The notes under the pieces were generated by a model. It was not told where the DNA came from. It saw only the letters and a program-made list of their open reading frames with translations, and made no database searches. A stretch of DNA of 64,000 nt from Anaeromyxobacteraceae bacterium (GTDB lineage Bacteria > Myxococcota > Myxococcia > Myxococcales > Anaeromyxobacteraceae), in contig JASGHJ010000001.1 of assembly GCA_047602405.1 (NCBI GenBank), positions 2,304,001-2,368,000 of the forward strand, in the 5' to 3' direction. This document shows, piece after piece, positions 1-21,481 of the stretch (its first letter is position 1; the number at the start of each line of letters is the position of its first letter). The translations under genes were made by a program, and so were the position numbers.

Positions 1-2
1 CG

Positions 3-1292
3 ATCGCCCGCTACGAGGAGGTCATCACCACCTACGCGCCCATCCGCGACGAGATCGACGCGATCCTCTCGATGCACGAGGACCCGGTCCGCTACTTCAA
101 CGAGCTCATCGGCCGGCAGGGCAAGAGCTTCGACGTGGCGAGCGTGCTGCCGCCGGCGGCGGTGAAGTGGACGACCGGCAACGAGGAGGTCGCCACCGCG
201 CTCGACATCGTCGGCGCGCTCGACGCCTCCCGGCGCGACGCCCGCGAGGCGGGCCAGCTCGCCGAGCGCATCGACCTCGCGCTGAAGCGCGGCGACGGCA
301 TCGACGCGTTCCCGACGCTGCAGCGGGGCTACGCCTCGGCGGAGGCCATCGAGAACGGCGCCGCGCTGCTCGAGGGCGAGGTGGCGGCGCAGGCCGCCCA
401 GGCCGCCGGCGCGCTCGAGCCCGAGCGCCGGGCGGCGTTCGAGGAGAACCGGGCGCGCGCCGCCGAGCTCCAGGCCCGGCTCGCGCGGCTCCCGCGCTCG
501 CCCGAGGAGGCCGAGGCGCGCCTCAAGCGCCTGCGCGAGCGGCTCGACCAGGTCGACCGCTACGCCTTTCAGCTCACCCAGGCCGTCGACGGCCTGAACG
601 CCGCCATCACCGGCTCCGAGAACTGGCTGCAGCGGTACCGCGGCGAGATCACCGGCGCCGCCGACGACCGGGGCGCCCTCTCCGAGGAGCTGCGCGAGCA
701 CCGCCGCACCGCCGAGCGCTACGCCGAGGAGGCGCAGGCCCTCCGCGACGAGATCGCGAAGGAGCGCGACGCGGTGGTCGGGAGCGACGTCGTCCGCGAG
801 GAGGCCGCGCTGCGCGACGCGTACCTCGAGGCGGTCGCGAGGGAGCGCGAGCTCCTGAAGGGCGCCAACCTCCCGCCCGAGCAGGCGAAGGCGCTCGCCG
901 AGGCCGACGCGCTGGGCGCCCGGCTCGCCGGGCTCCGCGAGCGGGCCCGGGCCGTCGGCGAGAAGCTCCGCGGCGAGGCCGCGCGCCGCGCGGTCGAGGT
1001 GAAGCGCCGGGTCGCCTTCGAGCGCGCGGTGCTCGACGAGCAGGTCACCTCGCTCGACGGCGTGCAGGTGGACGCGAAGGACCTCGTGGGCCGCATCGCC
1101 TTCCGCGCCTTCGGCGAGGTCCGCGGCCAGTTCTACCGGCTCGTGCTCAAGGCCGACGTCGGGCTCATCGACGTCGCCTGGACCCGCAAGCGCGAGCGGC
1201 TCGACAGGATCCAGGAGCTCTCGAGGCAGAAGGGCGAGGAGCTCCAGCGGCTCGACCGCGACTACCGCGCGCTGCTCAGGGAGGTCAACTGA
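3..1292 (+). CDS. C-terminal part of a TPR/coiled-coil protein of a Glt-like cluster (5' end lies outside the window)
   Basis: Frame is open from base 3 (IARYEEVITTYAPIRDEIDAILSMHEDP...). Helical, coiled-coil-like sequence ending LVLKADVGLIDVAW...; directly upstream of gltD/E/F/G-like genes. Confidence 0.75.
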   Translation: MARYEEVITTYAPIRDEIDAILSMHEDPVRYFNELIGRQGKSFDVASVLPPAAVKWTTGNEEVATALDIVGALDASRRDAREAGQLAERIDLALKRGDGIDAFPTLQRGYASAEAIENGAALLEGEVAAQAAQAAGALEPERRAAFEENRARAAELQARLARLPRSPEEAEARLKRLRERLDQVDRYAFQLTQAVDGLNAAITGSENWLQRYRGEITGAADDRGALSEELREHRRTAERYAEEAQALRDEIAKERDAVVGSDVVREEAALRDAYLEAVARERELLKGANLPPEQAKALAEADALGARLAGLRERARAVGEKLRGEAARRAVEVKRRVAFERAVLDEQVTSLDGVQVDAKDLVGRIAFRAFGEVRGQFYRLVLKADVGLIDVAWTRKRERLDRIQELSRQKGEELQRLDRDYRALLREVN

Positions 1293-1294
1293 GC

Positions 1295-4200
1295 GTGAGG
1301 CTGCGCGCCGCCATCGCCGCGCTCGCCGCCGCGGCCCTCGCGCCCGCCGCCCCCGGCGTGGCGCAGGACCCGCCGCCGCCGCCGCCGCCGCCGCCGGTCG
1401 CGCCCGCGGACCGGCCGCCGCTCGGCCGCCCGGGCGCCCCCGTCGCGCCGCAGCCGCAGTCCCAGGCGCCGGTCGCGGCCACGCCCGCGCCGCCCGCGTC
1501 GCCGTTCCTCGCCGCGCCCGCCGGCTACGACCGCTGCGTCGAGAAGGGCGCGGGGCGGCTCGATCGCTCGCGCCTCGGCCTGGCGGCCGCCGAGACGAAG
1601 CCGCCGGTGGGCGACGCGCAGGGCCGCGCCGAGCTCGAGGCGGCCGTCGCGCGCTTCGAGGCCGAGGCCGGCGCGTACCGCGCCGAGGTCCAGCAGATCA
1701 TCCAGAAGCAGTTCGACGAGCGCCGGCGCTTCACCGGCGAGCACTACGAGCAGGCCATCCGCGACCTCGAGGTGCTCGAGCGCAGCGAGCGCGAGGCCGC
1801 CATCGCGCGCTTCGAGGAGTTCATCCGGCGCTACCCGGACGATCCGATCTACACGCCCGACGCGATGTTCCGCCTCGCCGAGCTCCACTACGAGCAGGCG
1901 AACGACGACTTCGAGGCGGCCGCGCAGCGGCAGCAGGCCGACGCCGCCCAGGCGCTGGCCGAGGGCCGCGAGGCGCCGCCCGAGCCGGTGAAGAGCTACG
2001 CCCGCTCGATCGCGCTCTACCAGCGCATCATCACCGGCTTCCCCGACTACAAGTTCGCCCACGGCGTGCAGTACCTGCTCGCGTACTGCCTCGGCGAGAT
2101 GGGGCAGGGCGAGGAGGCCGTCGCGGCGTACCGCGCCCTCATCGACCGCTTCCCGAGGAGCCCGTTCGTGCCCGAGGCCTGGGTCCGCCTCGGCGACTGG
2201 TACTTCGACGACACGCGGGCCGACTCGCTCGACGAGGCGGCCGGCGCGCTCGGGCACATCTTCGAGTACCCGGAGCACCCGCTCTTCGCGAAGGCGGTCT
2301 ACAAGCTCGGCTGGGCCTACTACCGGATGGACGACTTCCCGCACGCCGTCGAGGCGTTCTCGAAGCTGCTCGACCACTACGTCGAGGAGGCGGGGAAGAC
2401 CGGCCAGAAGCCGGGCGGCGAGGTGTGGCCCGAGGCGATCCAGTACTCCGCCATCTCCTTCGCCGACGAGCACGGGGGCGGGGTGGACCGCGCGAAGGCG
2501 TTCTACGCGGGGCTGGGCGGCAGGCCCTACGAGGCGGAGATCTTCCTCCGCCTCGGCGACGTCTACTTCGACGAGACGAAGTACGCGAACGCGGTCGCGG
2601 CCTACAAGGCGTTCCTCGAGCGCCAGCCCCTCGCCCCGGAGGCGCCCTCGGTGCAGGCGAAGATCGTGCTCGCCTGGTCGCGCGACCGCCAGTTCGACAG
2701 GGAGGCCGCCGAGCGCGAGGCCCTCGTCGCCGCCTACCAGGAGGGCTCGCCCTGGTGGCAGAAGAACCAGGGCGACCCGGATTCTGATCGCGAACGTCCG
2801 AGACCTCTCCGAGAAGAGCCTGCTCCGCGCGGCGAGCTTCCACCACGCGCAGGCCCAGGCCTACAAGGGCCAGGGCAAGCTCGAGGCCGCGGTGGCCGAG
2901 TACCGCATCGCCTCCCGCGCCTACGGCGACTACCTGACCCGCTTCCCGCACGCGAAGCAGGTGCACGAGCTCGCCTACAACTGGGCCGACACGCTCTACA
3001 ACGCGCTCGAGTTCGAGAAGGCCGCCCGGGTCTACGCCGCGGTCCGCGACGACCCCGCCGGCGACAGGTTCCGCGGCGACGCCGCCGTCTCGGCGGTCAT
3101 CTCCTGGGAGGGCGAGGTCACCCGCCTGCAGCGCGCCGGGCAGCTGCCGGATCGCAGGGTGCTGCTCTCCACCGACCGCAAGGCCGAGGAGCTCCCGAAG
3201 GTCGAGGCGCTCCCGCCCATCTTCCAGAGCCTCGTGCGCGACTCCGACGCGATGGTCGGCGCGGTGCCGGACCAGGAGAAGGCGCCCGCGATCGCCTACA
3301 AGGCCGCCGAGGTCTTCTACAAGTACAACGACTACGAGGAGGCGCGCTGCCGGTTCGAGGAGGTGGTCGCGCGCTGGCCGGGCTCGGAGGTCGCCACCTT
3401 CGCGGCGAACCTCATCATCGAGAGCTACCTGACCATGAAGGACTGGGACGCGGTGGAGAAGGCCTCCGCCCGCCTGCAGTCCGACAAGGTCGCCTCCAAC
3501 AAGACCCTCAACGCCAGCCTCCAGAAGTTCAAGCTGGGCGGCCGCTTCAACCGCGCCATGCAGCGCATGGACGCGAAGCAGTGGGAGCCCGCCGCGGAGC
3601 TCTTCCTCGCGCTCGTCGCGGAGGACCCGAAGCACGAGTTCGCCGACAAGGCGCTCTTCAACGCGGCCGCCTGCTACGAGGGCGCCCGGCGCTTCGAGAG
3701 CGCGCTCAAGCTCTACGAGCGGATCTACGCCGAGTACCCGCGGTCGACGCTCGCCGACGAGGCGCTGTTCAGGGTCGGCTTCAACGCCGAGAACACCTAC
3801 GAGTTCGAGAAGGCCGTCCAGAAGTACCTCTCCCTCGTCGAGCGCTACCCGAAGTCGAAGCACCGCAAGGACGCGCTCTACAACGCGGCCCGCTCGCTCG
3901 AGAACCTGCAGCAGTACGACGAGGCGGCGAACGCGTTCGTGCGCTACGCGCGCGCCTACCCGGACGCCGACGACGCGGCCCGCACGCTCTTCCACGCCGC
4001 GCTCGTCTACCAGAAGAACGAGGACGTCCGGCGCGAGGTGGCGGCGCTGCAGGACTTCGCGCGCCGCTACGCCCGCACGAAGGAGCACGAGCTCGTCGTG
4101 CAGGCGCACCTCGAGCTCGGCCTCGCCCAGGAGAAGCTGAGGGACCAGAAGAACGCCGTCGCGAGCTGGCGCGCGGCGGTGCGGGAGTTCGCGGCCCGGG

Positions 4201-4871
4201 GCCTGAAGCCCGAGGCGGCGCCGCGCGCGGCGAGCGCCGCCGCCGAGGCGCGCTTCCGCCTCGCCGAGCTCGACTTCGAGAAGTACGACCGGATCACGCT
4301 CCCCGCGACCAGCAACACCGGCAAGCTCAAGAAGGCGCTCGAGGCGAAGCTGGCGGAGGCGAAGAAGGTCGCCCCCCAGTACGACGAGGTGATGCGGTAC
4401 AAGCGGCCGGACTGGATCCTGGCCGCGTTCTACCGCAAGGCCCACCTCCTCGAGCGGCTCGCGCAGACGATCTACGAGGCCCCGCCGCCCCCGGAGTTCA
4501 AGCGGCGCGGGCAGGAGGAGTACCTCGCGGCCTACCAGGACGGGCTCGCGCAGTTCGCCCAGCCGTACGAGGAGCAGGCGGTCAAGGTCTACGTGGACGC
4601 GATCGAGGCCGCCCGGAAGCTGCACGTGAAGAACGAGTGGACGAAGAAGATCGGGGAATCGCTGGCCCGCTACCGGCCCCGCGAGTACCCGGTCCTCAAG
4701 GAGGCGAAGGCGCGGATGGTGACGGAGGACGTCACGCCGCTGCCGCTCGCCGACACGCCAGAGGGGCCTTCGAGGCGGGTGCTGCAGGGCGCTGGTGCGG
4801 AGGTTCCGCCCGTGGTGCCCGAGCCCGCCGCGACGGCCAGCGACGCGCCGGGGAAGACCCCGGCCAAGTGA
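1295..4871 (+). CDS. Large secreted TPR protein, GltD/AgmU-like; apparent +1 frameshift at ~2783
   Basis: GTG at 1295, signal peptide, poly-Pro, many TPR/YfiO-like repeats (PDAMFRLAELHY, PEAWVRLGDWYF). Removing one T in ggattctg (2780-2786) gives QGDPDLIANVRDLSEKSLLRAASFHH, which joins the 2892..4871 ORF. Confidence 0.85.
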
Positions 4872-4891
4872 CCCAGAACGAGAGAGCGACC

Positions 4892-6466
4892 ATGAACCCC
4901 ATGAAGCGCACCATCCTCCTCGCGGCCGCGTTCCTCGCGGCGGCCTGCGCCACCGCCGGCGGCGCGGGCGGCGGCTCCGGCGGCGCGGCCAGCCGCTACA
5001 AGCAGGCGGACAACGTCCCGCCCCGCGCGAACCAGCTCGCCGACGAGATCGAGAGCTCGTACTACGGCAACGGCGCCACCACGCAGGCCCGGGGCGACGA
5101 GGCCGCCCGGTCCGGCAACCTGGACCAGGCCCGCGCCGAGTGGAACCAGGCCGCGGGCATCTACGCCTCCTTCGCGGACAAGTTCCCGTCCAGCGACTGG
5201 GCCCTCAAGATCCGGTACGACGCCGCCTTCCTCTTCTTCCAGTCGCGGCAGTACGAGAGCGCGGCCACCCAGTTCATCAAGGTCTACAACGATCCGAACG
5301 CCCAGCCCGTCACGAAGGCGATGTCGGGCAAGATGCTCGCGATCACCTGGCAGGCGGCCGCGAACGCCGCGCAGAAGGCCGGCAAGATCGAGCCGATGCG
5401 GTTCACCTTCTCCGACCAGCGCGCCGGGAAGCCCCCCGAGCCGCGCGTGCCGCCCGCGGAGTGGAAGCGGTTCATCGACGCGGTGGACCTCTTCCTGCCC
5501 GTCTCCGACGCCGACCCCGAGCTCAAGAAGCCGGCCGCGGAGCGCCAGGGCTCCCCGCCGCCGTACTTCGCCGAGGTCTCCGGCGAGGTGAGCTTCGCGA
5601 ACGACAACATGCTCGACGCGCAGAAGCGCTTCGCGATGGTGCTCGACCGCTGGCCGGAGGAGGCCGAGTACGTCCAGAAGGCCTCCCAGCTGTACCTGCA
5701 GACCTTCCTCATCCTCGGCGACACGGCCGGCCACGAGGCCGCGATCCAGAAGCTCCGCGGCGTCGTCCAGGGCCAGCTCGCGAGGAAGGACGTCACCGAG
5801 GACCACCGGAAGATCTACGGGAAGATCCTCCAGGACCTCGAGAACGCGAACTCGGCGAAGCTCTTCGGCGCCGCCCAGAAGCTCCTCGAGGAGGGCAAGT
5901 TCGCCGAGGCCGGCCAGGCCTTCGAGACCCTCGCCGCCGACCCGAAGGGCGGCGACGCCCCGAACGCGCTGCACAACGCCGCGATCGCGTACGACAAGGC
6001 CGGCCAGAAGGAGAAGGCCGTCGCCATCCGCCAGCGCATCCTGAAGGAGTTCCCGGACTCGAAGACCGCGCCGATGAACCAGATCCAGCTGGCGCTGCGC
6101 GCGACCGAGGCGAAGAAGTACGACGAGGCGGTGAAGTACTACCAGGAGTTCCTGCAGAAGTGGCCGGGTGACCGCAACCGCTGCGTCGCGCTCCAGAACA
6201 TCGCGTCCACCTACGACACCGCGAAGAAGAAGGCCGACGCCGCCCAGGCGTACCTCGCCTTCGGCACCGACGGCGAGTGCGCCAAGCTCGACCCGAACAC
6301 GCTCGCGAAGGTGCTCTTCCGCTCCGGCGCGCTCGCCGAGCAGGTGAAGGACAAGGCGAAGGCGAAGCAGGCGTTCACGGCCTGCGCCGCGCTGCAGGGC
6401 GTGACCGACGTCGTCGCGAAGAGCCAGCAGGACGAGGCGAAGAACCGCCTCAAGGCGCTCAAGTAG
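4892..6466 (+). CDS. TPR-repeat lipoprotein
   Basis: MNPMKRTILLAAAFLAAAC lipobox; TPR-like motifs (APNALHNAAIAYDKAGQ, YQEFLQKWPG). Confidence 0.85.
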   Translation: MNPMKRTILLAAAFLAAACATAGGAGGGSGGAASRYKQADNVPPRANQLADEIESSYYGNGATTQARGDEAARSGNLDQARAEWNQAAGIYASFADKFPSSDWALKIRYDAAFLFFQSRQYESAATQFIKVYNDPNAQPVTKAMSGKMLAITWQAAANAAQKAGKIEPMRFTFSDQRAGKPPEPRVPPAEWKRFIDAVDLFLPVSDADPELKKPAAERQGSPPPYFAEVSGEVSFANDNMLDAQKRFAMVLDRWPEEAEYVQKASQLYLQTFLILGDTAGHEAAIQKLRGVVQGQLARKDVTEDHRKIYGKILQDLENANSAKLFGAAQKLLEEGKFAEAGQAFETLAADPKGGDAPNALHNAAIAYDKAGQKEKAVAIRQRILKEFPDSKTAPMNQIQLALRATEAKKYDEAVKYYQEFLQKWPGDRNRCVALQNIASTYDTAKKKADAAQAYLAFGTDGECAKLDPNTLAKVLFRSGALAEQVKDKAKAKQAFTACAALQGVTDVVAKSQQDEAKNRLKALK

Positions 6467-6471
6467 TCGCC

Positions 6472-7872
6472 ATGGCCCGGCGCGCCCTCCACCTCCCCGT
6501 CGTCGGCCTCGCGGCGCTCCTCGCGCTCGCGGCGGCCGCCGGCTGCGCCTCGACCCAGAAGCCGGCGACCCCGGCCTCCGGGGCGCAGGCGGAGGGGGGC
6601 GCGCCCGCCAGGGTCCCGCCGGGCGGGTTGGTCGACGAGCCCGCCGGCGCCCCGCCCCCGCCGCCCGAGCCGGCCGCGCCCTCCGAGGCCGACCAGAAGA
6701 AGGCCCGGGAGAAGTTCGCCGAGGCCGTCGCGCTCGAGCAGCGCGGCGACCTCGCGCGCGCGGCGGACCGCTTCGAGGACGCGTTCGAGCTCGACCGGCG
6801 CCTCGGCCACGCGGCCGTGAACGCCGGGCTCCTCCGGGAGCGGCAGGACGATCCGAGGCGCGCCCAGTCCGCCTACCTCGCCGCGCTCGCGGCCCTGCCC
6901 GACTTCGCGCCCGCGGCGCGGAACCTCGCCCGGATGCGCATCCGGGCCGGCGACCTCGACGGCGCCGAGCGCGACCTGCGCGCCCGCGCGGCGAAGCTGA
7001 CCGACCCGGTGGGGCTGCGCATCGCGCTCGCCGAGGTGCTGCTCGCCCGTAACAAGGCGCCAGAGGCCGAGCAGGAGCTCAAGAAGGCGCTCAAGGTCGA
7101 CGAGAAGAACGTGCCGGCGATGGTCGCGCTCGCGACCGTCTACCACGCGAAGAAGCGCTACGAGCTCGCCCGCATGGTGCTCGAGAACGCCGCGCAGATC
7201 GATCCGTCCGACGCCGCGGTCCACCACCGGCTGGGCTTCGTCGAGCTCGCGCTCGGCGAGCGGGCCCAGGCGCTCGAGCAGTTCCGCACCGCCGTGCAGC
7301 TCCGCCCCGACTACGCCGAGGCCCAGGCCAACTACGGCGCGATGCTCGCCGACGCCGAGGACCACGACGGCGCCGTGACCGCGCTCGAGGCCGCCGCGCG
7401 CCTCATGCCCGCGAGCGCCAAGGTCTGGAACGACCTCGGCAACGCCTACCGCGGCCAGCGCGCGTTCGAGAAGGCGGAGGCCGCCTACCGGAAGGCCCTC
7501 GCGCTCGACGCCGGCCTCGTGGAGGCGCACTACAACCTCGGCGTCCTCTACCTCGACGGCGACAAGCCCGGCACCCCGGCGCTCTCGCGCGTCGAGCAGG
7601 CGGTCGCCTTCTTCGACACGTACGAGAAGAAGGGCGGCAAGGAGCCGAAGCTCGCCGAGTACCGCAAGGACGCCGCGAAGGCGATCGACCGCGAGAAGAA
7701 GCGGCTCGCCCGCGAGGAGAAGGACCGGGTCCGCAAGGAGGCCGAGGCGAGGCGGAAGGCCGACGAGGACCGGAAGGCGCAGAAGGCGCCGGCCGCCTCG
7801 GACATCCCGCTGCCGCCGCCGCCGCCGGGGACCTCGCTGCAAGGCAAGTCTGCGAAGGGAGGCACGAAGTGA
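6472..7872 (+). CDS. TPR lipoprotein, GltE/AglT-like
   Basis: Lipobox AAGC, Pro-rich linker, canonical TPRs (VWNDLGNAY, AHYNLGVLY); position immediately before gltF/gltG-like genes. Confidence 0.85.
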   Translation: MARRALHLPVVGLAALLALAAAAGCASTQKPATPASGAQAEGGAPARVPPGGLVDEPAGAPPPPPEPAAPSEADQKKAREKFAEAVALEQRGDLARAADRFEDAFELDRRLGHAAVNAGLLRERQDDPRRAQSAYLAALAALPDFAPAARNLARMRIRAGDLDGAERDLRARAAKLTDPVGLRIALAEVLLARNKAPEAEQELKKALKVDEKNVPAMVALATVYHAKKRYELARMVLENAAQIDPSDAAVHHRLGFVELALGERAQALEQFRTAVQLRPDYAEAQANYGAMLADAEDHDGAVTALEAAARLMPASAKVWNDLGNAYRGQRAFEKAEAAYRKALALDAGLVEAHYNLGVLYLDGDKPGTPALSRVEQAVAFFDTYEKKGGKEPKLAEYRKDAAKAIDREKKRLAREEKDRVRKEAEARRKADEDRKAQKAPAASDIPLPPPPPGTSLQGKSAKGGTK

Positions 7873-8141
7873 CCCGTCGCCTGCTTGTGGCCCTGTTCGG
7901 GGCCGTGCTAACGATCCTGCCGATGGCCGGCGCGGCGCAGGACGCCGCGCCCGCCGCCGCGAAGAAGCGAGAGGGGCCGCGCAAGGTGCTCCGGCTCCAG
8001 GAGCTGAAGGTGGAGGGGCGCATCCAGAAGCCCCAGGCCATGTTCCTCATGCCGCGCGCGACGCTGAACTACGGGGAGCTCGACCGGTCCGAGCCGGTCA
8101 CCCCGAGGGTCAAGGCCGCGGTCCAGAAGGCGCCGTTCTAG
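7869..8141 (+). CDS. Small secreted GltF/CglF-like protein
   Basis: 90 aa with signal peptide and the VEGRIQKPQA...PF motif typical of GltF-like proteins; GTGA overlap with the upstream gene. Confidence 0.75.
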   Translation: MTRRLLVALFGAVLTILPMAGAAQDAAPAAAKKREGPRKVLRLQELKVEGRIQKPQAMFLMPRATLNYGELDRSEPVTPRVKAAVQKAPF

Positions 8142-8167
8142 ACCGGTCCCAAGGGAGCGAGACGACC

Positions 8168-9511
8168 ATGGCGGCACAGAAGGTCCTCCGCGTCGGGGTC
8201 ATCCAGGGCGGAAAGATCGTCGAGGAGCGGATCTTCCCGGCGCGCGCGTCGGTGACGATCGGCTCGTCGCAGAAGGCGAGCATCGTCGTCCCGGCCTCGG
8301 ACCTGCCGGCCGCGTACCAGCTCCTCTCGTTCCAGGGCTCCGGCTACGTGCTGCACTTCGAGGAGTCGATGGAGGGGCGCATCCAGAGCCCCCAGGGCGC
8401 CTCCGAGCTCGGCGCGATCATCGCCCAGGGCGGCGCGAAGCAGAGCGGCAAGAGCTACGCGCTGTCGCTCCGGGAGGACCACCGCGGCAAGGTGATGCTC
8501 GGCGAGGTCACCGTCCTCTTCCAGTTCGTCGCGCCGCCGCCCGAGGCCCCGAAGCTCGTGCTGCCGCGCGAGGCGAAGGGCAACCACTTCAAGAGCATGG
8601 ACCGGCTCTTCGTGAGCCTGCTCACGGTGTCCCTGCTCACGCACGGCTCCTGCTACGGCGTCCTCGCGAACACCGAGGTGAAGAAGGAGGTCACCCTCGA
8701 GGAGATCCCGGACCGCTACGCGAAGCTGCTCATCCCCGAGAAGCAGCCCGAGCGCCCGAAGCCCGTCGAGGAGAAGCCCGCCGCCACGACCGAGGCCGCC
8801 CCCGCGAAGCAGGAGGAGGCGAAGGCCGAGCCCGACGCGGGCAAGAAGCAGGGCTCGCCGGCCGAGGACGCGCAGAAGAAGGCCGCGCACGCCGCGGCGG
8901 TCGCGAAGGCGGTGCAGTCGAAGGGCATCCTGAAGGTGCTCGGCTCGCTCGGGCCCGGCGGCGGCGGCGGCGCGGTCGCCGACGTGTTCGGGAGCGGCGG
9001 CGGCATCGGCGACGTCGCGACGGCGCTCTCCGGCGCGGGCGGCGTGGCGGTGGCCACCGACCCCGGCGCGGGCGGCGGGCGCAAGGGCGGCGGGCAGGGC
9101 GGGGCGGCCTCCATCGGCGACCTCGCGACGAGCGGCGGCGGCAACGTCGGCCTCGGCACGAAGAGCGAGGTGCGGGTCTCCGGCTCGGTCGCCACCGAGG
9201 CCGCCGAGATCGACTCCTCCGAGATCGACCAGGGCAAGCTCAACGGCTTCGTGCGCGCGCGCATGGGGCTCGTGAAGGCCTGCTACGAGAACGCCCTCAA
9301 GCGGAACCCGAACCTGAAGGGCAAGCTCACCATCCGGTTCACCATCCTCGAGACGGGCGGGCTCGCGGACATCGTCACCGCGCTCAACACGATCGGCTCG
9401 TCCGACGTCGCGAGCTGCATCATCGGCACGATGCGGACCTGGCGCACGCAGTTCCGGCCGTCCGGGCCGGTGACGGTCGAGTACCCCTTCGTCTTCTCCC
9501 CGGTGAACTGA
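8168..9511 (+). CDS. GltG-like TonB/TolA-like protein (N-terminal FHA-like region, single TM, AgmX/PglI-type C-terminal domain)
   Basis: One TM helix with an S...H motif (SLLTHG), Lys/Glu/Gly-rich linker, C-terminal KACYENALKRNPNLKGKLTIRFTI...VEYPFVF. Confidence 0.85.
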   Translation: MAAQKVLRVGVIQGGKIVEERIFPARASVTIGSSQKASIVVPASDLPAAYQLLSFQGSGYVLHFEESMEGRIQSPQGASELGAIIAQGGAKQSGKSYALSLREDHRGKVMLGEVTVLFQFVAPPPEAPKLVLPREAKGNHFKSMDRLFVSLLTVSLLTHGSCYGVLANTEVKKEVTLEEIPDRYAKLLIPEKQPERPKPVEEKPAATTEAAPAKQEEAKAEPDAGKKQGSPAEDAQKKAAHAAAVAKAVQSKGILKVLGSLGPGGGGGAVADVFGSGGGIGDVATALSGAGGVAVATDPGAGGGRKGGGQGGAASIGDLATSGGGNVGLGTKSEVRVSGSVATEAAEIDSSEIDQGKLNGFVRARMGLVKACYENALKRNPNLKGKLTIRFTILETGGLADIVTALNTIGSSDVASCIIGTMRTWRTQFRPSGPVTVEYPFVFSPVN

Positions 9512-10458
9512 TGAAGGCCGTCCGACTCTCCGAGGTGAAGGAGCTGCTCTCAGGCCAGGCGTTCGCGGCCTGGTGGGCCGAGTACGGCCGCGGGGTCGCC
9601 GCGCTGAAGGACGCGCGGCTGCGCCACGAGGAGCTCGTCGCGCAGGCCGAGATGATGGAGCTGCGCTCCGAGCTCGCGCAGCGCGCCGCGATCGACGCGT
9701 TCTCGCGCAGCGGCGAGGCCGAGGACCGCGGGCGCGGCGAGCAGGCCGAGGCGCAGGCGCTCGAGAACCAGGCCCTCGAGCACGTCGCGATCTACGAGGA
9801 GCACCGCTTCCGCACCTCCGATCTCTGGTACCGCCTCGGCGGGGCCGAGAAGCGCCTCGAGGAGGCGAGGGAGGCCGCAACCTCGGCGCCGGGCGCCGTG
9901 AAGCAGAAGGCGGACGCCGCGCTCGCCGAGGCCGAGAAGGAGCACGCGCGCGTGCGCGGCGACTACGAGGCCTTCGACGGCCGCCGCAACAAGCTCTGGG
10001 AGGACGTCGAGGACGCCTGGTCGCGCAGCTGCGAGCGCGCGCTTCTCGCCGCCGAGCACAGCGTGGGCGCCCGCGCGGTGCGCCGCGAGGCCGAGCGGCT
10101 CTTCAAGGAGGCCGAGGAGCGCCGCACCCGCGCGAAGGCCCTGCGCGCCGAGGCGGACGCCGCCGGCCGCGAGCGCGCCGACGCCGAGCGCAGGCGCGCC
10201 GACCTGCTCCGCGGCGCCGGCGAGCGCTTCGGGTGCCTGGCCGGCGACGGCTGGCTCTACTGGCGCAACCGCGACGACAAGCGGGCCGCGTTCGCGGTCG
10301 CGCTCCAGGACCTGCCCGAGGGCGCGAACCTCGAGGTGAAGGCGCTCTCGATCTACGCCGTGGGGCTGCAGCGCGGCATCGGCCACCTCAATCCGGCCCG
10401 CGAGGGTGCGGCCGCGATCAAGGAGGGGGCGCCGCCCGCCCCGACGGGCGCCGCCTGA
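9511..10458 (+). CDS. Hypothetical coiled-coil protein
   Basis: TGATG coupling to the gltG-like gene; helical, E/A/R-rich; high-GC3 codon usage. Confidence 0.75.
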   Translation: MKAVRLSEVKELLSGQAFAAWWAEYGRGVAALKDARLRHEELVAQAEMMELRSELAQRAAIDAFSRSGEAEDRGRGEQAEAQALENQALEHVAIYEEHRFRTSDLWYRLGGAEKRLEEAREAATSAPGAVKQKADAALAEAEKEHARVRGDYEAFDGRRNKLWEDVEDAWSRSCERALLAAEHSVGARAVRREAERLFKEAEERRTRAKALRAEADAAGRERADAERRRADLLRGAGERFGCLAGDGWLYWRNRDDKRAAFAVALQDLPEGANLEVKALSIYAVGLQRGIGHLNPAREGAAAIKEGAPPAPTGAA

Positions 10459-10477
10459 TCCCCGGAGACGCGACGGG

Positions 10478-13400
10478 ATGAGCCCGCTCCTCGCGGCCCT
10501 CGTGGCCGGGGCCGTCGCGGTCTCGAACTTCCCCAGGGACGCCGGCGGGCGCATCTCGCGCACCGCCATCCCGGTCGAGCTCCAGGGAGCGCCGGCGGTG
10601 GTGGTCGCCGCCGGCGACCGGCTCGTCGCCTTCCGCGCCGACGGCGCGGTGCTGAGCGGGTTCCCGGTGACCCTCGGCGCGAACGCCGTGGGCGCGCCCG
10701 CCGCCGCGGACATGGACGGCGACGGCAAGCCGGAGGTCGCGGTCGCGACCGAGGACGGCCGGCTCTGGCTCGTGACCGGCGGCGGCCCCGTGCCGGGCTT
10801 CCCGGTGAAGCTCGGCGCCGCGCTGCGCGCCGGCCCCTCGTTCGCCGACGTCGACGGCGACGGCCACCCGGAGGTGCTCGTCGGCGATCCGGCCGGCCGG
10901 GTGCACGCGCTCCGGAGGGACGGCCGCCCCGCGAAGGGCTGGCCCTCCGCCGCGGGCCGCTCGCCGGTGACGACCTCGGTCTCTTCCTCGCGCTTCGCCG
11001 GCGGACCGTCGTTCGCGTACGGCTGCGAGGACGGCCGGGTGCACGTGCTCGACGCGGCCGGCAAGGAGCGGAAGGGCTTCCCGCTCGTCACCGCGTTCAC
11101 CGTCACCGGCGCGCCGGTCTTCGCCGACCTCGACGACGACGGCGAGATCGACCTCCTCGCCGCGAGCCAGGACTTCAAGGTCCACGCCGTCGACGCGCGC
11201 GGCGCGCCGAAGCCGGGCTTCCCGGTGACGACCGCCTACCGCATCTACGAGGGGCCGGCGGTCGGCGACCTCGACGGCGACGGCCGCCTCGACGTGGTGT
11301 TCGCCTCGGCCGACGGCCTCGTGCACGCGGTGTCGAGCGCGGGGAAGCCGCTCCCGGGCTTCCCGGTCCAGGCCGGCGCCCGCACCTTCGGCGCCGCGGT
11401 GCTGGGCGACGTCGATCGCGACGGACGGCTCGAGGTGGTGGTCGCCGGCGGCGACGGCGCGGTGTACGCGTTCGACGCGAGGGGGCAGCCGCTGCCCGGC
11501 TTCCCCGAGCCGCTCGCGGTGAACGACACCACCGCCTCGCCCCTCGTGCTCGACCTCTCGCGCCAGGGCGTCCCGGGCATCTTCCTCGGCCTCGCGAACG
11601 GCAAGCTGCACGCCGTCCGGGTCGCCCGCGCGGGCTCCCAGGCCGCGTCGGCGCCGCCGGCGTGGCCGCAGGCGGGCCGCGACCCTGCCCAGACGGCGCG
11701 CTTCGGCCCGAATCCGCCCGTGTACAAGGACCTCGCCGTCGCGCCGTCGAAGCCGCGCGTGACGGACGGGCTCGCCGCCAGCTGGAAGGTGTTCTGGCTC
11801 GACGCGCGGCCGGGCGAGGAGCCTGCTCCGCCCAGGATCGAGTGGCGCCGGAACGGGAAGGCCGTGCCCGCCCACGACGGGAGGCGCGAGGTCCCGGTCG
11901 GCGCGCTCCGCAGGGGCGAGACCTGGAGGTTCGTGCTCACCGGCCCGGGTGGGAAGACGTTCGAGGGGCCGGACACGCTCGTGCTCGACTCGGCGCCCGG
12001 CGAGGCGGCGGTCGCGATCGAGCCCGCCCGGCCGAGCCGCGCGCAGCCGGCCCGCGCGAGGATCACCGCGCCGGCGCCCGACGCCGACGGCGATCCGGTC
12101 GCCTACCGCATCCAGTGGCTCCTCGACGGCGTCGACACCGGGGTGACCGGCGAGGTGTTCCCGGCCGATCGGCTCAGGAAGGGCGCGCTCCTCGGCGCGC
12201 GGGTCGTCGCGAGCGACGGCGAGCTCGACGGCGCGCCGGCCCTCGGCGTGGCGCGCGTGGTCGACACGCCGCCCGGCGCGCTCGCGGCCTCGCTCGAGCC
12301 CGCCGAGCCGGGCCGCGCCGAGGCCGTCCGCGTGAGGATCGACCGGCCCGCCGAGGACGTCGACGGCGACCCGCTCACGTACCGGCTCGCGTGGAAGGTG
12401 GGGGGCGTCGCGCGCAACCTCCCCGCCGGCACCATGGAGCTGCCCGCCGGCCAGTTCAGGAAGCACGAGGTCCTCGAGGTCGAGGTCCGCGCGTTCGACG
12501 GCGAGCTCGAGGGCCCGCCCACGATCGCCCGCGCGACCGCGCGCAACACGCCGCCCGGGGCGGGGGCGGTGCGGATCACCCCGGCCGCCCCGCGGCGCGG
12601 CGATCCCCTGCGCGCGGTGCTCACCCAGGGCGCCGAGGACGTGGACGCCGACCTCCTCTCGTACCGCTACGCCTGGACGAAGAACGGCGCGCCGCTCGCG
12701 GTGCCGGGGGACGGCCGCGAGGTGCCGGCGAAGGAGGTCGCCCGCGGCGACCGCTTCCGGGTCTCGGCGGTGGCGCTCGACGGCGAGGCCGAGGGGCCGC
12801 CCGCGACCGCCGAGGCCACCGTGGGCAACACGCCGCCCGAGGCGCCGCGCATCGCGGTCGAGCCCGCCCGCCCGCGGGGCGGCGAGACCCTGACCGTGAA
12901 GGTCCTCGAGCCCGCGCGGGACCCGGACGGCGATCCGGTGAAGCTCGCCGTCGCGTGGGCCCGCGACGGGCGCCCGACCGGCGACGGGGGCGAGGCGCTG
13001 CCGCCCACCGCGTTCAAGAAGGGCGAGCGCGTCCGCGTCACGGTGACGCCCTCCGACGGCACCGACCCGGGCCCGCCCGCCGCCTTCGAGGTCCGCGTCG
13101 AGAACGCGGTCCCCGGCGCGCCGAGGGTGGCGCTCGAGCCGGCCCGGCCCGCCGTGACCGCGCCGCTCCGCGCCGTGCTCGCCGAGCAGGCGAAGGACGC
13201 CGACGGCGACGCGCTCCGCTACCGGTACCGCTGGACGCGGGACGGCCTGCCGTTCGCGCTGCCCGACGGCAGCGAAGGCTCGCAGCGGCCGCCGTACTGG
13301 ACCTCCACCACCGAGGTGCCCGCGAAGGAGCTTCACAAGGGGCAGCGCTGGGCCGTCGAGGTGCAGGCGGGCGACGGCGAGGCGTTCGGCCCGTCGGCCG

Positions 13401-15184
13401 TCGCCGACGCGACCGTCGTGAACAGCCCGCCGCCGCAGCCCGCGGTCGCGCTGCGCCCCGACCGGCCCCGCCGCATGGACGGCCTCCTCGCCGAGGTGAA
13501 GCAGCCGCCCGACGCCGACGGCGACGTGCTCACGCTCCGCTACACCTGGACGCGCGACGGCCAGAGGGTCGACGTCCCGCCGGACGAGGCGCAGATCGCG
13601 CGCGGCACGCCCCGGCGCGGCCAGCGCTGGGCGGTCGAGGTCGTCGCGCTCGACGGCGAGGCCGAGTCGGCGCCCGCGCGCGCCGAGGTGGTCATCGCCG
13701 ACACGCCGCCCGGCCCGGTGGGCGTCGCGCTCTGCGAGCACGCCACCGGCGGCACGGTGCCGACGGGCACGGTCCCCGAGGTCCGGGTGACGCGGCCCGC
13801 GACCGACGCCGACGGGGACGCGATCAGCTACCGCCACGAATGGACCGTCGACGGCCGCCCGCAGGCCTCGGCCTCCGGCCAGACCCGGCTCGCCGGCCCG
13901 CGCGGCAAGCACGACGTCGTGCGGGTGACGGTGACGCCGTGGGACGGCGAGCTCGCCGGGCCGCCGGCGGGCGCCGAGTGCACGTTCCGCAACACGCCCC
14001 CGACGACGCCCGCCATCGCGCTCGAGCCCGCGGAGCCCACCGCGCTCACGGGCGTCACGGTCTCGATCCGCCGGCCCTCGACCGACCTCGACGACGACCC
14101 CGTGAGCTACCGGTACGCCTGGACGCGCAACGGTGTCCCCGCCGCGTTCGAGGGCGCGACGATCCCGCCGGACACGCTGCGGCACGGCGAGCTGTGGCGG
14201 GTGGTGGTGACGCCGTTCGACGGCGAGCAGGAGGGCGAGCCCGCCGCGCTGTCGGTCGTGGTGAAGAACACCGCGCCGCCCGCGCCCACGGTGCTGCTCA
14301 CGCCGGCGACGCCCGCCGTGGGCGAGCCGGTGAGCTGCGACGCCCGCGCGCCGGAGCGCGACGCCGACGGCGAGCCGGTGACGCTCGGGTACCAGTGGTT
14401 CAGGGACGGCGCGCTGCAGGCGGTGGGCGAGGGCTCGGCGTCGCTGCCGCGCGGCCTCGTGCGCCGCGGCGAGCGCTGGCGCTGCGAGGCGTGGGCGCAG
14501 GACGGGCAGGGCGGGGTGAGCCCGCGCGGCAAGGCCGAGCTCGTCGTGCGCAACAGCCCGCCGAAGGCGCCCGAGGTCGCGGTCGAGCCCGAGCGCCCGC
14601 GGCGCGAGGACCCCCTCGCGTGCCGCATCGCGGTCGCCTCCGCGGATCCCGACGGCGACGCCGTGACCTACGCCTACGCCTGGACCCGCAACGGCTCGGC
14701 CGTCGCGCCCGGCGCCGACCCCGCGCGCGTCGCGCCACCCGCGCTCGCGAAGGGCGAGCGGTGGCGGTGCAGCGCCACGCCGTCGGACGGCACGCTCGCC
14801 GGCCCCGCCGGCTGGGCCGAGAAGGTCATCGCCAACACGCCGCCCGGCCCGCCGCGCGTGCGCATCGTCCCGGCCGCCCCGAGGGCGGGGCAGGCGCTGC
14901 GGTGCGAGATTGTCACGCCGGGTGTGGACGTGGACGGCGATGTGGTCCGGTATCGCTGGCGCTGGCAGAAGAACGGCTCGGTCCAGCCGTTCGCCGAGAG
15001 CTCTCAGGAGGTTCCGTCACGTCTGGTGCGGCCCGGGGATCGCTGGCGCTGCACGGCGACCCCGACCGACGGGGTGGACCTGGGCCCTGAAGGGGGTAGC
15101 GAGGAAGTGACCGTGCCAGGCGGTCCAACCGGGCCTGCGATCAGCGTTTCGGACGGGCTCTCCGCCGAGCGCCCCTCGCGTTGA
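10478..15184 (+). CDS. Large secreted FG-GAP beta-propeller + ~12 tandem Ig-like (DxDGD) repeat protein, putative adhesin
   Basis: Hydrophobic N-terminus; FG-GAP Ca motifs (DMDGDGKPEV, DVDGDGHPEV, DLDDDGEIDL, DLDGDGRLDV, DVDRDGRLEV); then ~95-aa repeats NxPP...DxDGD..Y...W..DG. Confidence 0.85.
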   Translation: MSPLLAALVAGAVAVSNFPRDAGGRISRTAIPVELQGAPAVVVAAGDRLVAFRADGAVLSGFPVTLGANAVGAPAAADMDGDGKPEVAVATEDGRLWLVTGGGPVPGFPVKLGAALRAGPSFADVDGDGHPEVLVGDPAGRVHALRRDGRPAKGWPSAAGRSPVTTSVSSSRFAGGPSFAYGCEDGRVHVLDAAGKERKGFPLVTAFTVTGAPVFADLDDDGEIDLLAASQDFKVHAVDARGAPKPGFPVTTAYRIYEGPAVGDLDGDGRLDVVFASADGLVHAVSSAGKPLPGFPVQAGARTFGAAVLGDVDRDGRLEVVVAGGDGAVYAFDARGQPLPGFPEPLAVNDTTASPLVLDLSRQGVPGIFLGLANGKLHAVRVARAGSQAASAPPAWPQAGRDPAQTARFGPNPPVYKDLAVAPSKPRVTDGLAASWKVFWLDARPGEEPAPPRIEWRRNGKAVPAHDGRREVPVGALRRGETWRFVLTGPGGKTFEGPDTLVLDSAPGEAAVAIEPARPSRAQPARARITAPAPDADGDPVAYRIQWLLDGVDTGVTGEVFPADRLRKGALLGARVVASDGELDGAPALGVARVVDTPPGALAASLEPAEPGRAEAVRVRIDRPAEDVDGDPLTYRLAWKVGGVARNLPAGTMELPAGQFRKHEVLEVEVRAFDGELEGPPTIARATARNTPPGAGAVRITPAAPRRGDPLRAVLTQGAEDVDADLLSYRYAWTKNGAPLAVPGDGREVPAKEVARGDRFRVSAVALDGEAEGPPATAEATVGNTPPEAPRIAVEPARPRGGETLTVKVLEPARDPDGDPVKLAVAWARDGRPTGDGGEALPPTAFKKGERVRVTVTPSDGTDPGPPAAFEVRVENAVPGAPRVALEPARPAVTAPLRAVLAEQAKDADGDALRYRYRWTRDGLPFALPDGSEGSQRPPYWTSTTEVPAKELHKGQRWAVEVQAGDGEAFGPSAVADATVVNSPPPQPAVALRPDRPRRMDGLLAEVKQPPDADGDVLTLRYTWTRDGQRVDVPPDEAQIARGTPRRGQRWAVEVVALDGEAESAPARAEVVIADTPPGPVGVALCEHATGGTVPTGTVPEVRVTRPATDADGDAISYRHEWTVDGRPQASASGQTRLAGPRGKHDVVRVTVTPWDGELAGPPAGAECTFRNTPPTTPAIALEPAEPTALTGVTVSIRRPSTDLDDDPVSYRYAWTRNGVPAAFEGATIPPDTLRHGELWRVVVTPFDGEQEGEPAALSVVVKNTAPPAPTVLLTPATPAVGEPVSCDARAPERDADGEPVTLGYQWFRDGALQAVGEGSASLPRGLVRRGERWRCEAWAQDGQGGVSPRGKAELVVRNSPPKAPEVAVEPERPRREDPLACRIAVASADPDGDAVTYAYAWTRNGSAVAPGADPARVAPPALAKGERWRCSATPSDGTLAGPAGWAEKVIANTPPGPPRVRIVPAAPRAGQALRCEIVTPGVDVDGDVVRYRWRWQKNGSVQPFAESSQEVPSRLVRPGDRWRCTATPTDGVDLGPEGGSEEVTVPGGPTGPAISVSDGLSAERPSR

Positions 15185-15209
15185 CTGCCCGGCGGCAACC
15201 TAGTACGTT
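15181..15209 (+). promoter_or_regulatory. Putative sigma70-type promoter for the downstream three-gene export module
   Basis: TTGACT (15181-15186), 17-bp spacer, TACGTT (15204-15209) in a locally AT-richer stretch. Confidence 0.55.
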
Positions 15210-15256
15210 ATCTAGGCTTTTTCCGTTCCCAGCGCCGCCCCTCCGGAGCCGATCAC

Positions 15257-15880
15257 GTGAACCGCAGATTCACAGTGGCCGCCGTCGTCGCGCTCGCGCT
15301 CGCCAGCGAGGCACGGGCGCAGAAGGCGCCGCCGTCCGCGCCCCCGCAGGCACCGCCCGCGCGCACGGTCGGAGGGTCCCCTTCGACCCCGAAGGCGACG
15401 CCGGCGGGCCCGGGCGGGAAGGTGCTCTCCGACTCGGAGAAGGTCGAGAAGGCTTCCGAGTACGTGGCGAAGATGAAGGCCGCGATGAAGGCGGTCCTCA
15501 CCCGCGTCGAGGACGCGCGGAACGAGAAGGACGTCGTGAAGCTGAACTGCGTGAACGAGAAGCTCACGCAGGTGAAGGGGCTCCTCAAGGTCGCCGAGCA
15601 GGCCGACGTCGCGCTCTCCGAGGCGATCGCGCGCAAGGACGAGGCGGCCGACACCGAGTTCCAGAAGATCACGATGGCGCGCTCCAAGATCGAGGCGCTG
15701 CGCGGCGAGGCCGACCAGTGCATCGGCCAGCTCGCCTACGTCGTCGACAGCGAGACCTCGGTCGAGGTGCAGCAGCCCGACAACCTCGCGGGCCTCGACG
15801 TCACCCGCCGCCAGCCGCCCCCCGAGCCGGTCGTCACCCCACCCGTCGTGCGACGGCCGCCCGCGAGCCGCTGGTACTGA
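15257..15880 (+). CDS. Secreted helical hypothetical protein
   Basis: Signal peptide (A-R-A), Pro-rich linker, helical core [14 protein letters not shown]...ADQCIG with two Cys. Confidence 0.8.
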
Positions 15881-15885
15881 GCCCG

Positions 15886-17109
15886 ATGAAGCCTACCGGC
15901 CCGCGCCTCCTCGGCGCGCTCGTCGCCCTCGTGGCCCTCTCGCTCCCGGGCCCGGCCTCGGCCACGCCGGGGAACGGGATCCGCCTGGGCGGCTCCGACG
16001 GGCGGCTGCACCCGTACTTCGAGCTCGAGAGCCGCTGGGACTCGAACGCGCAGTTCCAGACCTCCGGGCAGGGCGCCCTCGTGATGCACCTGCGCCCCGG
16101 CTTCTCGATCGCCTCGCCGGGCGACCTCATCGCGCTCGACGGCGACGCGCGCCTCGACTGGGCGCAGTACCTCACCGGCGAGGACACCTCGAAGCTCTCC
16201 CGGCTCTTCGCCGACGTGTCGCTCGGCGTGGGCGTGAACCGCAAGGGCACGCTCGGCTTCGAGCTCAAGGACGACTTCCAGCGCAGCACCACCACCGCGT
16301 CGCTGACGTTCGGGTCCGCGGTCATCTCGAACCGCAACAACCTCGACCTCTCCATCCCGTGGCGCCCCGGCGGCGGGGCCCTCGCCGTCACCGCGCTCGG
16401 CAGCTGGAAGCTCGAGACCTTCGCGCCGTACTCCGACTGCCTCGACATCACCGACGCGTCCTGCTCGACGCAGGAGCTGAGGGACCTCGGCTACAACGAC
16501 CTGCGCGCCGGGGTCGAGGCGAAGTGGCGCTTCCTGCCCCGCACCGCGGCCGTGATCGACGGCAGCTACTCGGTGCGCATGCCGAACAGCACGAGGTCCT
16601 CGACCCAGGTCACCGGCTGGCGCGCGGACGCCGGCGTGCAGGGCCTCATCACCGCCCACCTCGCCGCGACGCTGAAGGGCGGCTGGGGCAGCGCGTCCGG
16701 CGGCGGCGGCCTCGGCACCTGGCTCGCCACGGGCGAGCTCGAGTGGCTGCCGACCGTGACGACCTCGGCGCGCGTCGGCTACGTGCACGACTGGGGCACC
16801 GACCCGGGCACGCCGTTCTCGCTCTACGGCACGCACCGCGTCTACGTGATGGGCAACATGCTCCTCGCCGGCCGCCTCACCGCCGGCCTGAAGGGGCAGC
16901 TCGAGTCGCTCTCCTTCCACAGCACGAGCGGCACGAACGTCATCTACCGGCTCGAGCCCACGCTCGACTACGCGCTCGCGCGGTGGGGCACGCTGGGGCT
17001 CGGCTACACGCTCTCCCACCGGAAGGCCGACGTGCCGAACGTGCCGACCGGCTACGCCTACGACTTCACGAAGCAGGAGCTGTGGCTCAAGTTCCGCTTC
17101 ACGTATTGA
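15886..17109 (+). CDS. Outer-membrane beta-barrel, Wzp-like polysaccharide-secretion porin
   Basis: Signal peptide, alternating beta-strand pattern, C-terminal aromatic residue (LWLKFRFTY); immediately upstream of an OPX gene. Confidence 0.75.
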
Positions 17110-17111
17110 CC

Positions 17112-17711
17112 ATGAACGTCAGGACGCTGGCTTTACTCGCGGTCGCTCTCGCCGGCTGCGCGCACCGCTCCGCCGAGCTCCCCGCCTCGACGCCGGCCTC
17201 CGAGGCCGCCGCGGCGCTGGCCGCGACCTCGCTCGGGCCGGGCGACGTGTTCGAGGTCCGCGTCTACGGCGAGCCCGAGCTCACCGGCATGTACCAGGTG
17301 GGCGCGGACGGGGCGGTCGTCTTCCCGCTCTGCCAGCGGGTGGAGGTGGGCGGGCTCGCCCCCAACGACGCCGCCGGCCGCATCCGCAAGTGCCTCGCCG
17401 AGCGCTTCATCCGCGACCCGCAGGTCACGGTGATGGTGAAGGAGTACAACTCGAAGAAGGTGTTCGTGTTCGGCGAGGTGCAGAAGCCCGGCACGTTCAC
17501 CTACGAGGACGGCATGTCGATCGTGCAGGCCGTCACGCTCGCGGGCGGGTTCACCAAGACCGCCGCGCAGAACTCCACCTCCGTCACGCGGCGCGTGAAC
17601 GGCACCGAGCAGAAGATCCGGGTCACCGTGCAGGACATCGCGCTCGGCAAGGCGCCGAACTTCACGCTCGAGCCGGGCGACATCGTGTTCGTGCCGGAGA
17701 GTCTCTTCTGA
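17112..17711 (+). CDS. wza: Polysaccharide export OPX/Wza-family lipoprotein (short form)
   Basis: LAGC lipobox, Poly_export motif [23 protein letters not shown] domain [11 protein letters not shown]...AVTLAGGF, ends [14 protein letters not shown]. Confidence 0.9.
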
Positions 17712-17716
17712 GTTCC

Positions 17717-17759
17717 GAGGGGGCGTAGCCCCCTCCCCGTGGAGCGAAGCTCCACGGGG
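17717..17759. repeat. Two tandem GC-rich hairpins (terminator or REP-like)
   Basis: gagggggc-gta-gccccctc and ccccgtggagc-gaa-gctccacgggg directly after the wza stop. Confidence 0.6.
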
Positions 17760-17800
17760 CCCCTCCCCGGATCTGCTCCGCTGCGCTTCGCAGGGGGTCC

Positions 17801-18529: not shown

Positions 18530-18651
18530 AGGTCTTCCGCTCGCCCCGAGCGTAGGCCCGCCGCAGGCGGGCCGGAGACGACATACAGCGGATGAAGGTC
18601 TTCCGTTCGCCCCGAGCGTAGGCCCGCCGCAGGCGGGCCGGAGACGAGGGG
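18502..18651. repeat. 66-bp tandem repeat (~2.2 copies) built from a REP-like hairpin element
   Basis: Units start at 18502, 18568 and 18634 (cgggccggagacga...); each full unit contains cgccccgagcgta-ggcccgcc-gca-ggcgggcc-ggagacga. Confidence 0.9.
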
Positions 18652-18769
18652 CGGCCGCAGGGTGGTCCGCCCCGCGGACCAAGGTCCGCGCCGCGTCCCG
18701 TGGCGATTTCGTGGATCCCCGTGATCCCGCGCCCTTGCCGCTGGCGCGCGGCTTGCTGAACGCGCGTGC

Positions 18770-20364: not shown

Positions 20365-21468
<1,104 letters not shown>

Positions 21469-21481
21469 GGTTGGATGGCGG

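Follow-up and report, generated by a model that had tools for sequence, protein, structure and literature searches.

The gliding (Agl–Glt) and spore-coat (Agl–Nfs) machines of Myxococcus xanthus share a GltC-D-E-F-G core, a transducer with a TonB-C domain and a TolQR-like motor (PMC11761067; PMC3858216). In the predicted Agl–Glt structure, GltG engages the motor, is wrapped around GltD and is connected to GltC by GltF, while GltC docks on the GltA/B/H barrels (PMC11761067). A further Glt paralogue cluster of unknown function, G4, comprises MXAN_1919–1923 (Luciano 2011, PMC3169522). The motor cluster M2 (MXAN_3003–3005) has been described as an orphan that plays no part in motility or sporulation (PMC3169522; PMC3858216). 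We have analysed a 64,000-nucleotide window of an Anaeromyxobacteraceae genome (GCA_047602405.1, contig JASGHJ010000001.1; G000:C1:2304001–2368000, G000 being the source genome, with 74% GC), in which positions 3–17,711 hold eleven genes that almost certainly include an orthologue of G4. These genes end with an adjacent barrel and short OPX protein orthologous to the WzpB–WzaB translocon for biosurfactant polysaccharide (BPS), which lies far from wzcB here as it does in M. xanthus (PMC7310880; PMC9603273; PMC12819527).

Relationship to G4, Glt and Nfs

All eleven genes lie on the plus strand, with intergenic gaps of −4 to 72 bases (Table 1), as described by the original prediction, which was made from the DNA letters alone. 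Its domain calls (TPRs, GltE- and GltG-like proteins, both below model cut-offs, FG-GAP, barrel and short OPX) also hold. Its first ‘TPR’ gene does encode TPRs but is really the cut 3′ end of a gltC-like gene, which is preceded, upstream of the window, by mglB, mglA and an orthologue of MXAN_1924, confirming the position of the locus downstream of mglB–mglA.

The M. xanthus genes were represented by the Myxococcus locus L116, whose OPX protein is identical over 185 residues to PDB 9N9A, deposited as M. xanthus WzaB, MXAN_1915 (PMC12819527), and whose neighbours share 90% clusters with MXAN_1916, 1919, 1920, 1922, 1923 and 1924 (8 of 10 queries found). Nine window genes are reciprocal best matches, in the same order behind mglBA, to MXAN_1923–1919, MXAN_1917, wzpB and wzaB. 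An exact look-up did not retrieve the L116 gltE-like protein, so its assignment to MXAN_1921 is by position and length. Identity to the L116 proteins is 31–53% (70% for the upstream MXAN_1924 orthologue), as compared with 25–28% to GltD/E and NfsD/G. Thus the gltD-like product is 46% identical to the MXAN_1922-type protein, 26% to GltD and 25% to NfsD; the gltE-like protein is 44% identical to its L116 counterpart and 28% to GltE; and identities to NfsD and NfsG of 25–26% compare with 43–46% to G4. The gltC-like product matches MXAN_1923 reciprocally (35% over 745 aa), and a sibling protein scored 52 bits against the GltC model (cut-off 450); for the gltF-like product, a relative's protein matches NF033764 at E 1.4e-6.

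The gltG-like protein has the length of MXAN_1919 (447 aa), is 43% identical to it and scores 169 bits against the GltG model (cut-off 650), covering model positions 205–647 only. An SxxxH motif in the transmembrane (TM) helix is present in 12 of 15 aligned G4 GltG rows; this is a motif of TonB and TolA. In a 29-row GltG tree the window protein falls with MXAN_1919 in a 13-row set (99/96), and Glt and Nfs occupy a separate branch (100/100); the G5 cluster, which was not found with the gltD query, is absent from the trees. The source genome carries a separate, complete glt cluster on contig C2 (308–334 kb), where the names gltA/B/H/I/J come from sequence reading and comparison matches; none of gltA, B, H, I or J is in the window.

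The window cluster is therefore neither the gliding nor the Nfs orthologue, and the phylogeny speaks against the objection that its genes are plain orthologues of those systems. It does not show the nfsA–H gene order, nor does its GltG-like protein group with gliding GltG (MXAN_4867). It almost certainly corresponds to G4, to judge from these comparisons. The original prediction of a poorly characterised Glt paralogue stands in that respect, but the paralogue had already been named and its neighbours are the characterised WzpB–WzaB pair. The five G4 genes agree with those of M. xanthus (PMC3169522) in kind, order, length, position at mglBA and sequence (35–47% identity). Unlike that cluster, the locus here has an extra TPR lipoprotein, a coiled-coil gene and an FG-GAP/Ig giant, and lacks a cNMP-binding gene. 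As compared with Agl–Glt and Agl–Nfs, it lacks GltA/B/H/K, GltI/J and the first FHA domain, forms a separate clade and has a different motor.

The gltD-like gene predicted here is present, but its frame is split. In 17.7 kb compared with the 95% identical sibling locus L011, in which gltD is in frame, the insertion responsible is the sole uncompensated coding indel within a gene body. The extra base is absent from the contigs of all four sequencing runs compared, which come from relatives about 96% alike and not from the source strain; no run matched half of the stretch (best share 0.32; RNA runs 0.07 and 0.05). Frame changes also occur in the gliding gltD (G000:C2:311712–314901) and a TPR-lipoprotein paralogue (C2:2618935–2620177) of the same assembly, suggesting scattered indel errors. 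The frameshift is probably an assembly error.

Table 1. Features of the locus, in window positions.
Feature	Position	Strand	Remarks
gltC-like TPR/coiled-coil gene, 3′ part	3..1292	+	~772 aa whole; start ~1 kb upstream of window; orthologue of MXAN_1923
gltD-like TPR scaffold, MXAN_1922 orthologue	1295..4871	+	frame split by one-base insertion near 2783
TPR lipoprotein, like GltD C-terminal half	4892..6466	+	lipobox Cys19
gltE-like TPR lipoprotein, syntenic equivalent of MXAN_1921	6472..7872	+	lipobox Cys25; NF033758 97.6 bits (cut-off 225)
gltF-like small exported protein, MXAN_1920 orthologue	7869..8141	+	47% over 57 aa
Short gltG-like inner-membrane transducer, MXAN_1919 orthologue	8168..9511	+	TM helix with SxxxH, TonB-C; N-terminal FHA domain absent
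Coiled-coil protein without signal peptide, no family	9511..10458	+	24/59 loci; also distant families
FG-GAP/Ig giant, 1568 aa	10478..15184	+	FG-GAP beta-propeller, then ~12 Ig-like repeats
Sigma70-type promoter-like site TTGACT-17-TACGTT	15181..15209	+	precedes helical gene, wzp, wza
Exported three-helix protein, syntenic equivalent of MXAN_1917	15257..15880	+	48% identity; two invariant cysteines; disordered proline-rich tail
Outer-membrane beta-barrel, WzpB (MXAN_1916) orthologue	15886..17109	+	31% over 405 aa, reciprocal best; BBP2_2
Class-3 short OPX lipoprotein, WzaB (MXAN_1915) orthologue	17112..17711	+	Poly_export+SLBB; lipobox Cys16; no membrane helix

A probable motor: the unlinked M2-type trio

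There is no TolQR-like gene in the region of the window examined, and eight PF01618 matches lie elsewhere in the genome. The original prediction had inferred a motor encoded elsewhere, and an M2-orthologous trio is indeed found on contig C2. In 12 of 16 distant G4 regions, which were hand-picked, partly for visible linkage, an aglR/aglQ/aglS-like trio sits between gltF and gltG. All 12 of these cis-encoded AglR-like proteins have as their best match the product of G000:C2:993611, part of an AglR/Q/S-like trio (G000:C2:993611–995419; L167:5612–7417) that is flanked by topA and a trmFO-like gene. In a 27-row AglR tree, this protein forms a clade (100/99) with two others and ABF87376, which is MXAN_3003 of cluster M2 and is likewise linked to topA; that clade nests inside the cis-encoded motors (97/93), and gliding AglR stands apart. 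The topA–trio–trmFO-like neighbourhood also occurs in genomes G041, G081 and G096.

The trio is retained together with G4. Among 59 genomes of the family, all at least 90% complete, an orthologous trio (E below 1e-79; next class above 1e-47) is present in 33, namely all 32 with a G4 gltG and G096, the only one of the 27 G4-lacking genomes to have it; G096 is in 730 contigs and its giant gene runs off a contig. On a tree of gliding-motor DNA covering 41 genomes (26 of the 33 with the trio and 15 of the 26 without; 11 genomes of genus g16 lack the marker), the state of the trio changes eight times, and seven of these changes are forced by well-supported branches. As the G4 and M2 loci are unlinked, a single deletion cannot explain their co-loss. 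Three of the genomes that have lost both (G007, G015 and G065) are single contigs and, elsewhere in the order, four genomes of family f3 as well as G196, G228, G153 and G028 have neither G4 nor the motor. In M. xanthus, MXAN_3003 binds neither GltG nor NfsG, and MXAN_3004 is dispensable for sporulation (PMC3858216). These results fit a pairing of M2 with G4. We are confident, on these grounds, that the M2-type trio is the G4 motor.

The eleven genomes of genus g16 (G083–G093) lack G4, wzp and the M2 motor, and also a gliding-type AglR at E 1e-25. In genera g15 and g17, the entire cytoplasmic domain is missing from the GltG-like proteins (L140, L141, L145, L146), whose first residues lie shortly ahead of the TM helix.

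Exporter genes, promoter and giant

The window OPX protein scores 223 bits against PDB 9N9A and at most 72 against other OPX structures, and the barrel falls in the MXAN_1916 cluster. The OPX protein differs from M. xanthus WzaB in that its C-terminal tail ends in LF, not FF, and RD stands at the twin-arginine motif. At G000:C1:907–909 kb, the genome also encodes a WzcB orthologue (45%), whose gene is the first of a glycosyltransferase cluster; a WecA-like protein (50%) is encoded in the same region (C1:893–909 kb). Since the flippase gene tested had no match in the genome, the exported polymer may differ from the ManNAcA-rich BPS. A second wzcB-like copy (39%) lies at C1:2391410–2393599.

Linkage of the exporter to G4 is old. 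In a set of 80 loci from named genome records (the best 80 of 356, biased toward close relatives), gltC–F lie before gltG in every one of the 41 loci that extend far enough upstream; of the 59 that extend far enough downstream, 55 have wzp and wza after gltG, and one of the other four, L086, has both beyond a 10-kb insertion. A draw of 161 genomes from the phylum, read by eye, contains 21 genomes in six families outside the order with a short gltG and wzp no more than 10 kb apart, and others in which the two are far apart (e.g. G134, G136, G174). The wzp/wza linkage is kept across at least seven families in the order and six outside it, and in the distant G4 regions with the giant the gene order is often gltG–coiled coil–cNMP–giant–helical gene–wzp–wza. 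Conservation of the linkage to FG-GAP, wzp and wza among relatives bears out the synteny that was to be checked. PF00025 and PF02706 proved to be poor search markers for mglA and wzcB.

Nevertheless, the exporter and G4 can each be retained without the other. In the family set, 28 genomes have G4 and wzp, 24 have neither, four have G4 only and three have wzp only. Two genomes (G081, G082) carry mglA–G4–giant–helical gene without wzp, and two (G108, G073) carry mglA–MXAN_1924 orthologue–TPR lipoprotein–helical gene–wzp–wza, with G4 and the giant gone. A wzcB orthologue is present in 21 genomes, all of which have wzp, and in none of the 28 without wzp; it is undetected at threshold in 10 of the 31 wzp genomes, including the sibling G010, which is 99% complete and keeps G4, wzp and wza.

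The helical gene–wzp–wza unit also has a promoter-like site of its own. The pattern TTGAC-N16–18-TAnnnT is found before the helical gene in 86 of 96 distinct loci, which include kin and are not independent, as compared with 0.42 in shuffles, and before seven other genes in 0–4 loci. Positions 15181–15209 hold the only match in window positions 1–18000, and three loci that have lost the downstream wzp also lack the site. A consensus promoter scan missed this site, whose −10 element matches at 3/6 positions; comparison across loci revealed it. To judge from this pattern, the eleven genes are probably not one transcription unit. A polar MXAN_1922 insertion leaves gliding and twitching normal (PMC3169522); because the exporter has its own conserved promoter, such an insertion need not show an exporter phenotype.

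These observations bear on two alternatives. G4 and M2 could form a general Tol/Ton-like envelope machine, serving outer-membrane tethering, turnover or another substrate, with wzp and wza as old neighbours that do a different job. The separate promoter, the two-way separation and the distribution of wzcB, which follows wzp and not G4, agree with this, as does the presence of similar core clusters in non-gliding bacteria (PMC3169522). It is less easily reconciled with a linkage that persists so deep in the phylum despite the distance of wzaB from its own polymer genes, or with wzp staying beside G4 where wzcB is undetectable; we consider it possible but unlikely. Alternatively, G4 and M2 could energize or gate WzpB-mediated export in the manner of TonB and its barrels: the GltG-like protein carries a TonB-C domain and an SxxxH helix, and G4 has no barrel of its own, WzpB being the only one nearby. 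Yet G108, G073 and the four f3 genomes keep wzp with neither G4 nor the motor, WzcB–WzaB–WzpB contacts account for export without G4 (PMC12819527), and the MXAN_1922 mutant was reported without a motility defect (PMC3169522), making direct energization very improbable. A complex prediction for the WzpB-like barrel and the helical protein scored 0.02 against a mark of 0.32 and is not used as evidence. A fold search with the model of the helical protein gave no match at E 0.001.

The giant contains FG-GAP and Big_9 domains. A model of residues 15–704 (pLDDT 87.9) shows a propeller and three beta-sandwich units, with eight-bladed propellers as the best fold matches and integrin alpha chains as loose ones (TM-score ~0.3); a PDB sequence search gave two weak propeller matches only. 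Linker motifs, of which there are eleven, recur about every 93 residues and, with ten D-x-D motifs, indicate the repeat number in Table 1. These repeats may be called ‘cadherin-like’. The giant has a short hydrophobic N-terminus, with no lipobox or C-terminal anchor in the 42 homologues listed, and so may be periplasmic or secreted; surface adhesins of the CglB/CglD kind are lipoproteins or have another surface anchor. Its designation as an adhesin is accordingly unproven.

In 29 of 59 loci the giant sits at the corresponding position, and 8 of the 16 distant regions have it after gltG. That the distant loci carry it overturns the idea that it is an Anaeromyxobacteraceae add-on; it was in the locus early on and is absent from M. 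xanthus. The giant query found nothing in the M. xanthus-type genome G041, a search run with no positive control, though the query finds 28 family genomes; 27 of these 28 have G4, an association that adjacency alone could cause. Of the 32 G4 genomes, all but G078 (580 contigs) have wzp, the giant or both.

The giant suggests a further alternative, in which G4 and M2 are a second MglA-controlled machine for surface motility or adhesion with the FG-GAP/Ig protein as its adhesin. The fixed site behind mglBA, the tracking of G4 by the giant, which stays when wzp is lost, and its build of a propeller and an Ig-repeat rod are in keeping with this idea. Against it, G4 and M2 have no supporting or rescuing role in the gliding of M. 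xanthus, which lacks the giant (PMC3169522); the locus has no GltI/J or first FHA domain to link it to the MglA platform; the giant has no surface anchor; and the source genome already has a complete glt cluster and an M1 motor. We regard it as improbable.

The coiled-coil gene is an old but often lost part of the locus; its product has no Pfam or NCBIfam match, and an Atlas look-up gave nothing above 0.81. The extra TPR lipoprotein, proposed as a component, is present but is found only in Anaeromyxobacteraceae loci and remains beside mglA in loci that have lost G4 (L032, L034, L136, L138). Since it outlives the loss of G4, it is probably a passenger. In G007 and G015 (L032:8558–10168; L034), the whole stretch from the MXAN_1924 orthologue through wza has been lost except for the TPR lipoprotein gene, which lies directly behind mglA.

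A possible mechanism

The locus almost certainly consists of the G4 cluster and the WzpB–WzaB export genes. We propose that G4 and the unlinked M2-type AglRQS trio together form a proton-driven transducer, spanning the envelope, which would pull or position cargo on the outer-membrane side, most likely a secreted polysaccharide layer and, where it is kept, the FG-GAP/Ig rod. By analogy with the Agl–Glt model, the SxxxH-bearing TM helix of the GltG-like protein would couple to the motor, its TonB-C domain and linker would wrap the GltD-like scaffold, GltF would bridge it to GltC, and the GltE-like lipoprotein would hold the assembly beneath the outer membrane. The MXAN_1924 orthologue, the helical protein, WzpB and the giant are candidate docking partners for GltC. 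Export would proceed via WzcB–WzaB–WzpB from the separate promoter and would not need G4. Because GltA/B/H barrels, GltI/J and the first FHA domain are absent, no focal adhesion of the gliding type is predicted. Action on a glycan layer or rod is favoured because of the phylum-deep linkage, the precedent of Nfs, which moves the spore-coat glycan (PMC3858216), and the retention of wzp or the giant in 31 of 32 G4 genomes. We give this scheme as a whole an even chance; the handling of glycan or the FG rod as the job of G4 we place slightly below that, at nearly even odds with a general envelope role.

Several observations weigh against this scheme. No experiment links G4 to any cargo, and gltD is broken in this assembly. 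The pairing with the motor is looser outside the order, where 11 of 14 small genomes of family f18 have a motor match without a strong short-GltG match, G137 has G4 without a motor match at threshold, and the correspondence is also weaker in G119 and G120; G4 of family f14 (L155, L157) has no motor, giant or wzp nearby. The existence of G4-only and wzp-only genomes, and of wzp without G4 or motor in family f3, argues in the same direction, as does the absence of the giant, which has no surface anchor, from G4-keeping Myxococcaceae loci. Several ‘lost’ genomes are fragmented assemblies. Finally, loss of wzaB or wzpB impairs swarm spreading, whereas polar MXAN_1922 and MXAN_3004 mutants are reported to have no appreciable motility defect (PMC3169522).

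A bolder version, which we think rather unlikely, would make G4–M2 the ancestral myxobacterial trans-envelope motor from which gliding and Nfs were built, with the WzpB pore, MXAN_1917 and an integrin-alpha-like propeller/Ig rod as its outer-membrane module, pulling, spreading or stripping surface glycan. If true, this would bear on the job of the ancestor of the gliding and spore-coat machines. Both G4 and M2 have been of ‘unknown function’ in M. xanthus since 2011, and strict co-retention in trans ties them together; the exporter, MXAN_1917 and the FG-GAP rod point to specific phenotypes. New here are the repeated co-loss of G4 with an unlinked motor, the separation of wzp/wza in both directions, the conservation of the promoter and the evidence that the giant is old. 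The accessible text of Luciano 2011 (PMC3169522) lists five genes for G4 and no pairing with M2 or an exporter. Our literature search, which left subscription papers mostly outside and so does not establish absence from print, found no G4–M2–exporter pairing; in the text it covered, Luciano 2011 alone uses G4 locus tags, and M2 tags appear in that paper and in Wartel 2013 but in no other. A 2026 transposon-fitness preprint does not name G4 genes in the main-text passages covered, and its supplements may hold fitness data. The genes of the masABK paper are on the other side of mglBA.

Upstream of the window, the MXAN_1924 orthologue (G000:C1:2302228–2302974; L170) is the most conserved gene of the cluster, is often mislabelled as a dihydrolipoamide acetyltransferase and lies outside G4 as described in the 2011 paper. 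It is retained with wzp where G4 is deleted (G108, G073), and an Atlas look-up returned only its own unnamed family. A stand-alone cNMP-binding gene, a possible G4 regulator, is located after gltG or after the coiled-coil gene in 33 of 59 loci, for instance at L022:11584–12033.

Downstream of wza (window 17801–23389) are a uracil-DNA glycosylase family gene, a ComM-like ATPase gene, recA and an IS4-like transposase gene, the last three of which we take to be such by eye. The first three recur after wza in relatives. Further along, on the minus strand (window 46046–55069), a nitrate/nitrite transporter gene and narGHJI-like genes can be recognized by eye.

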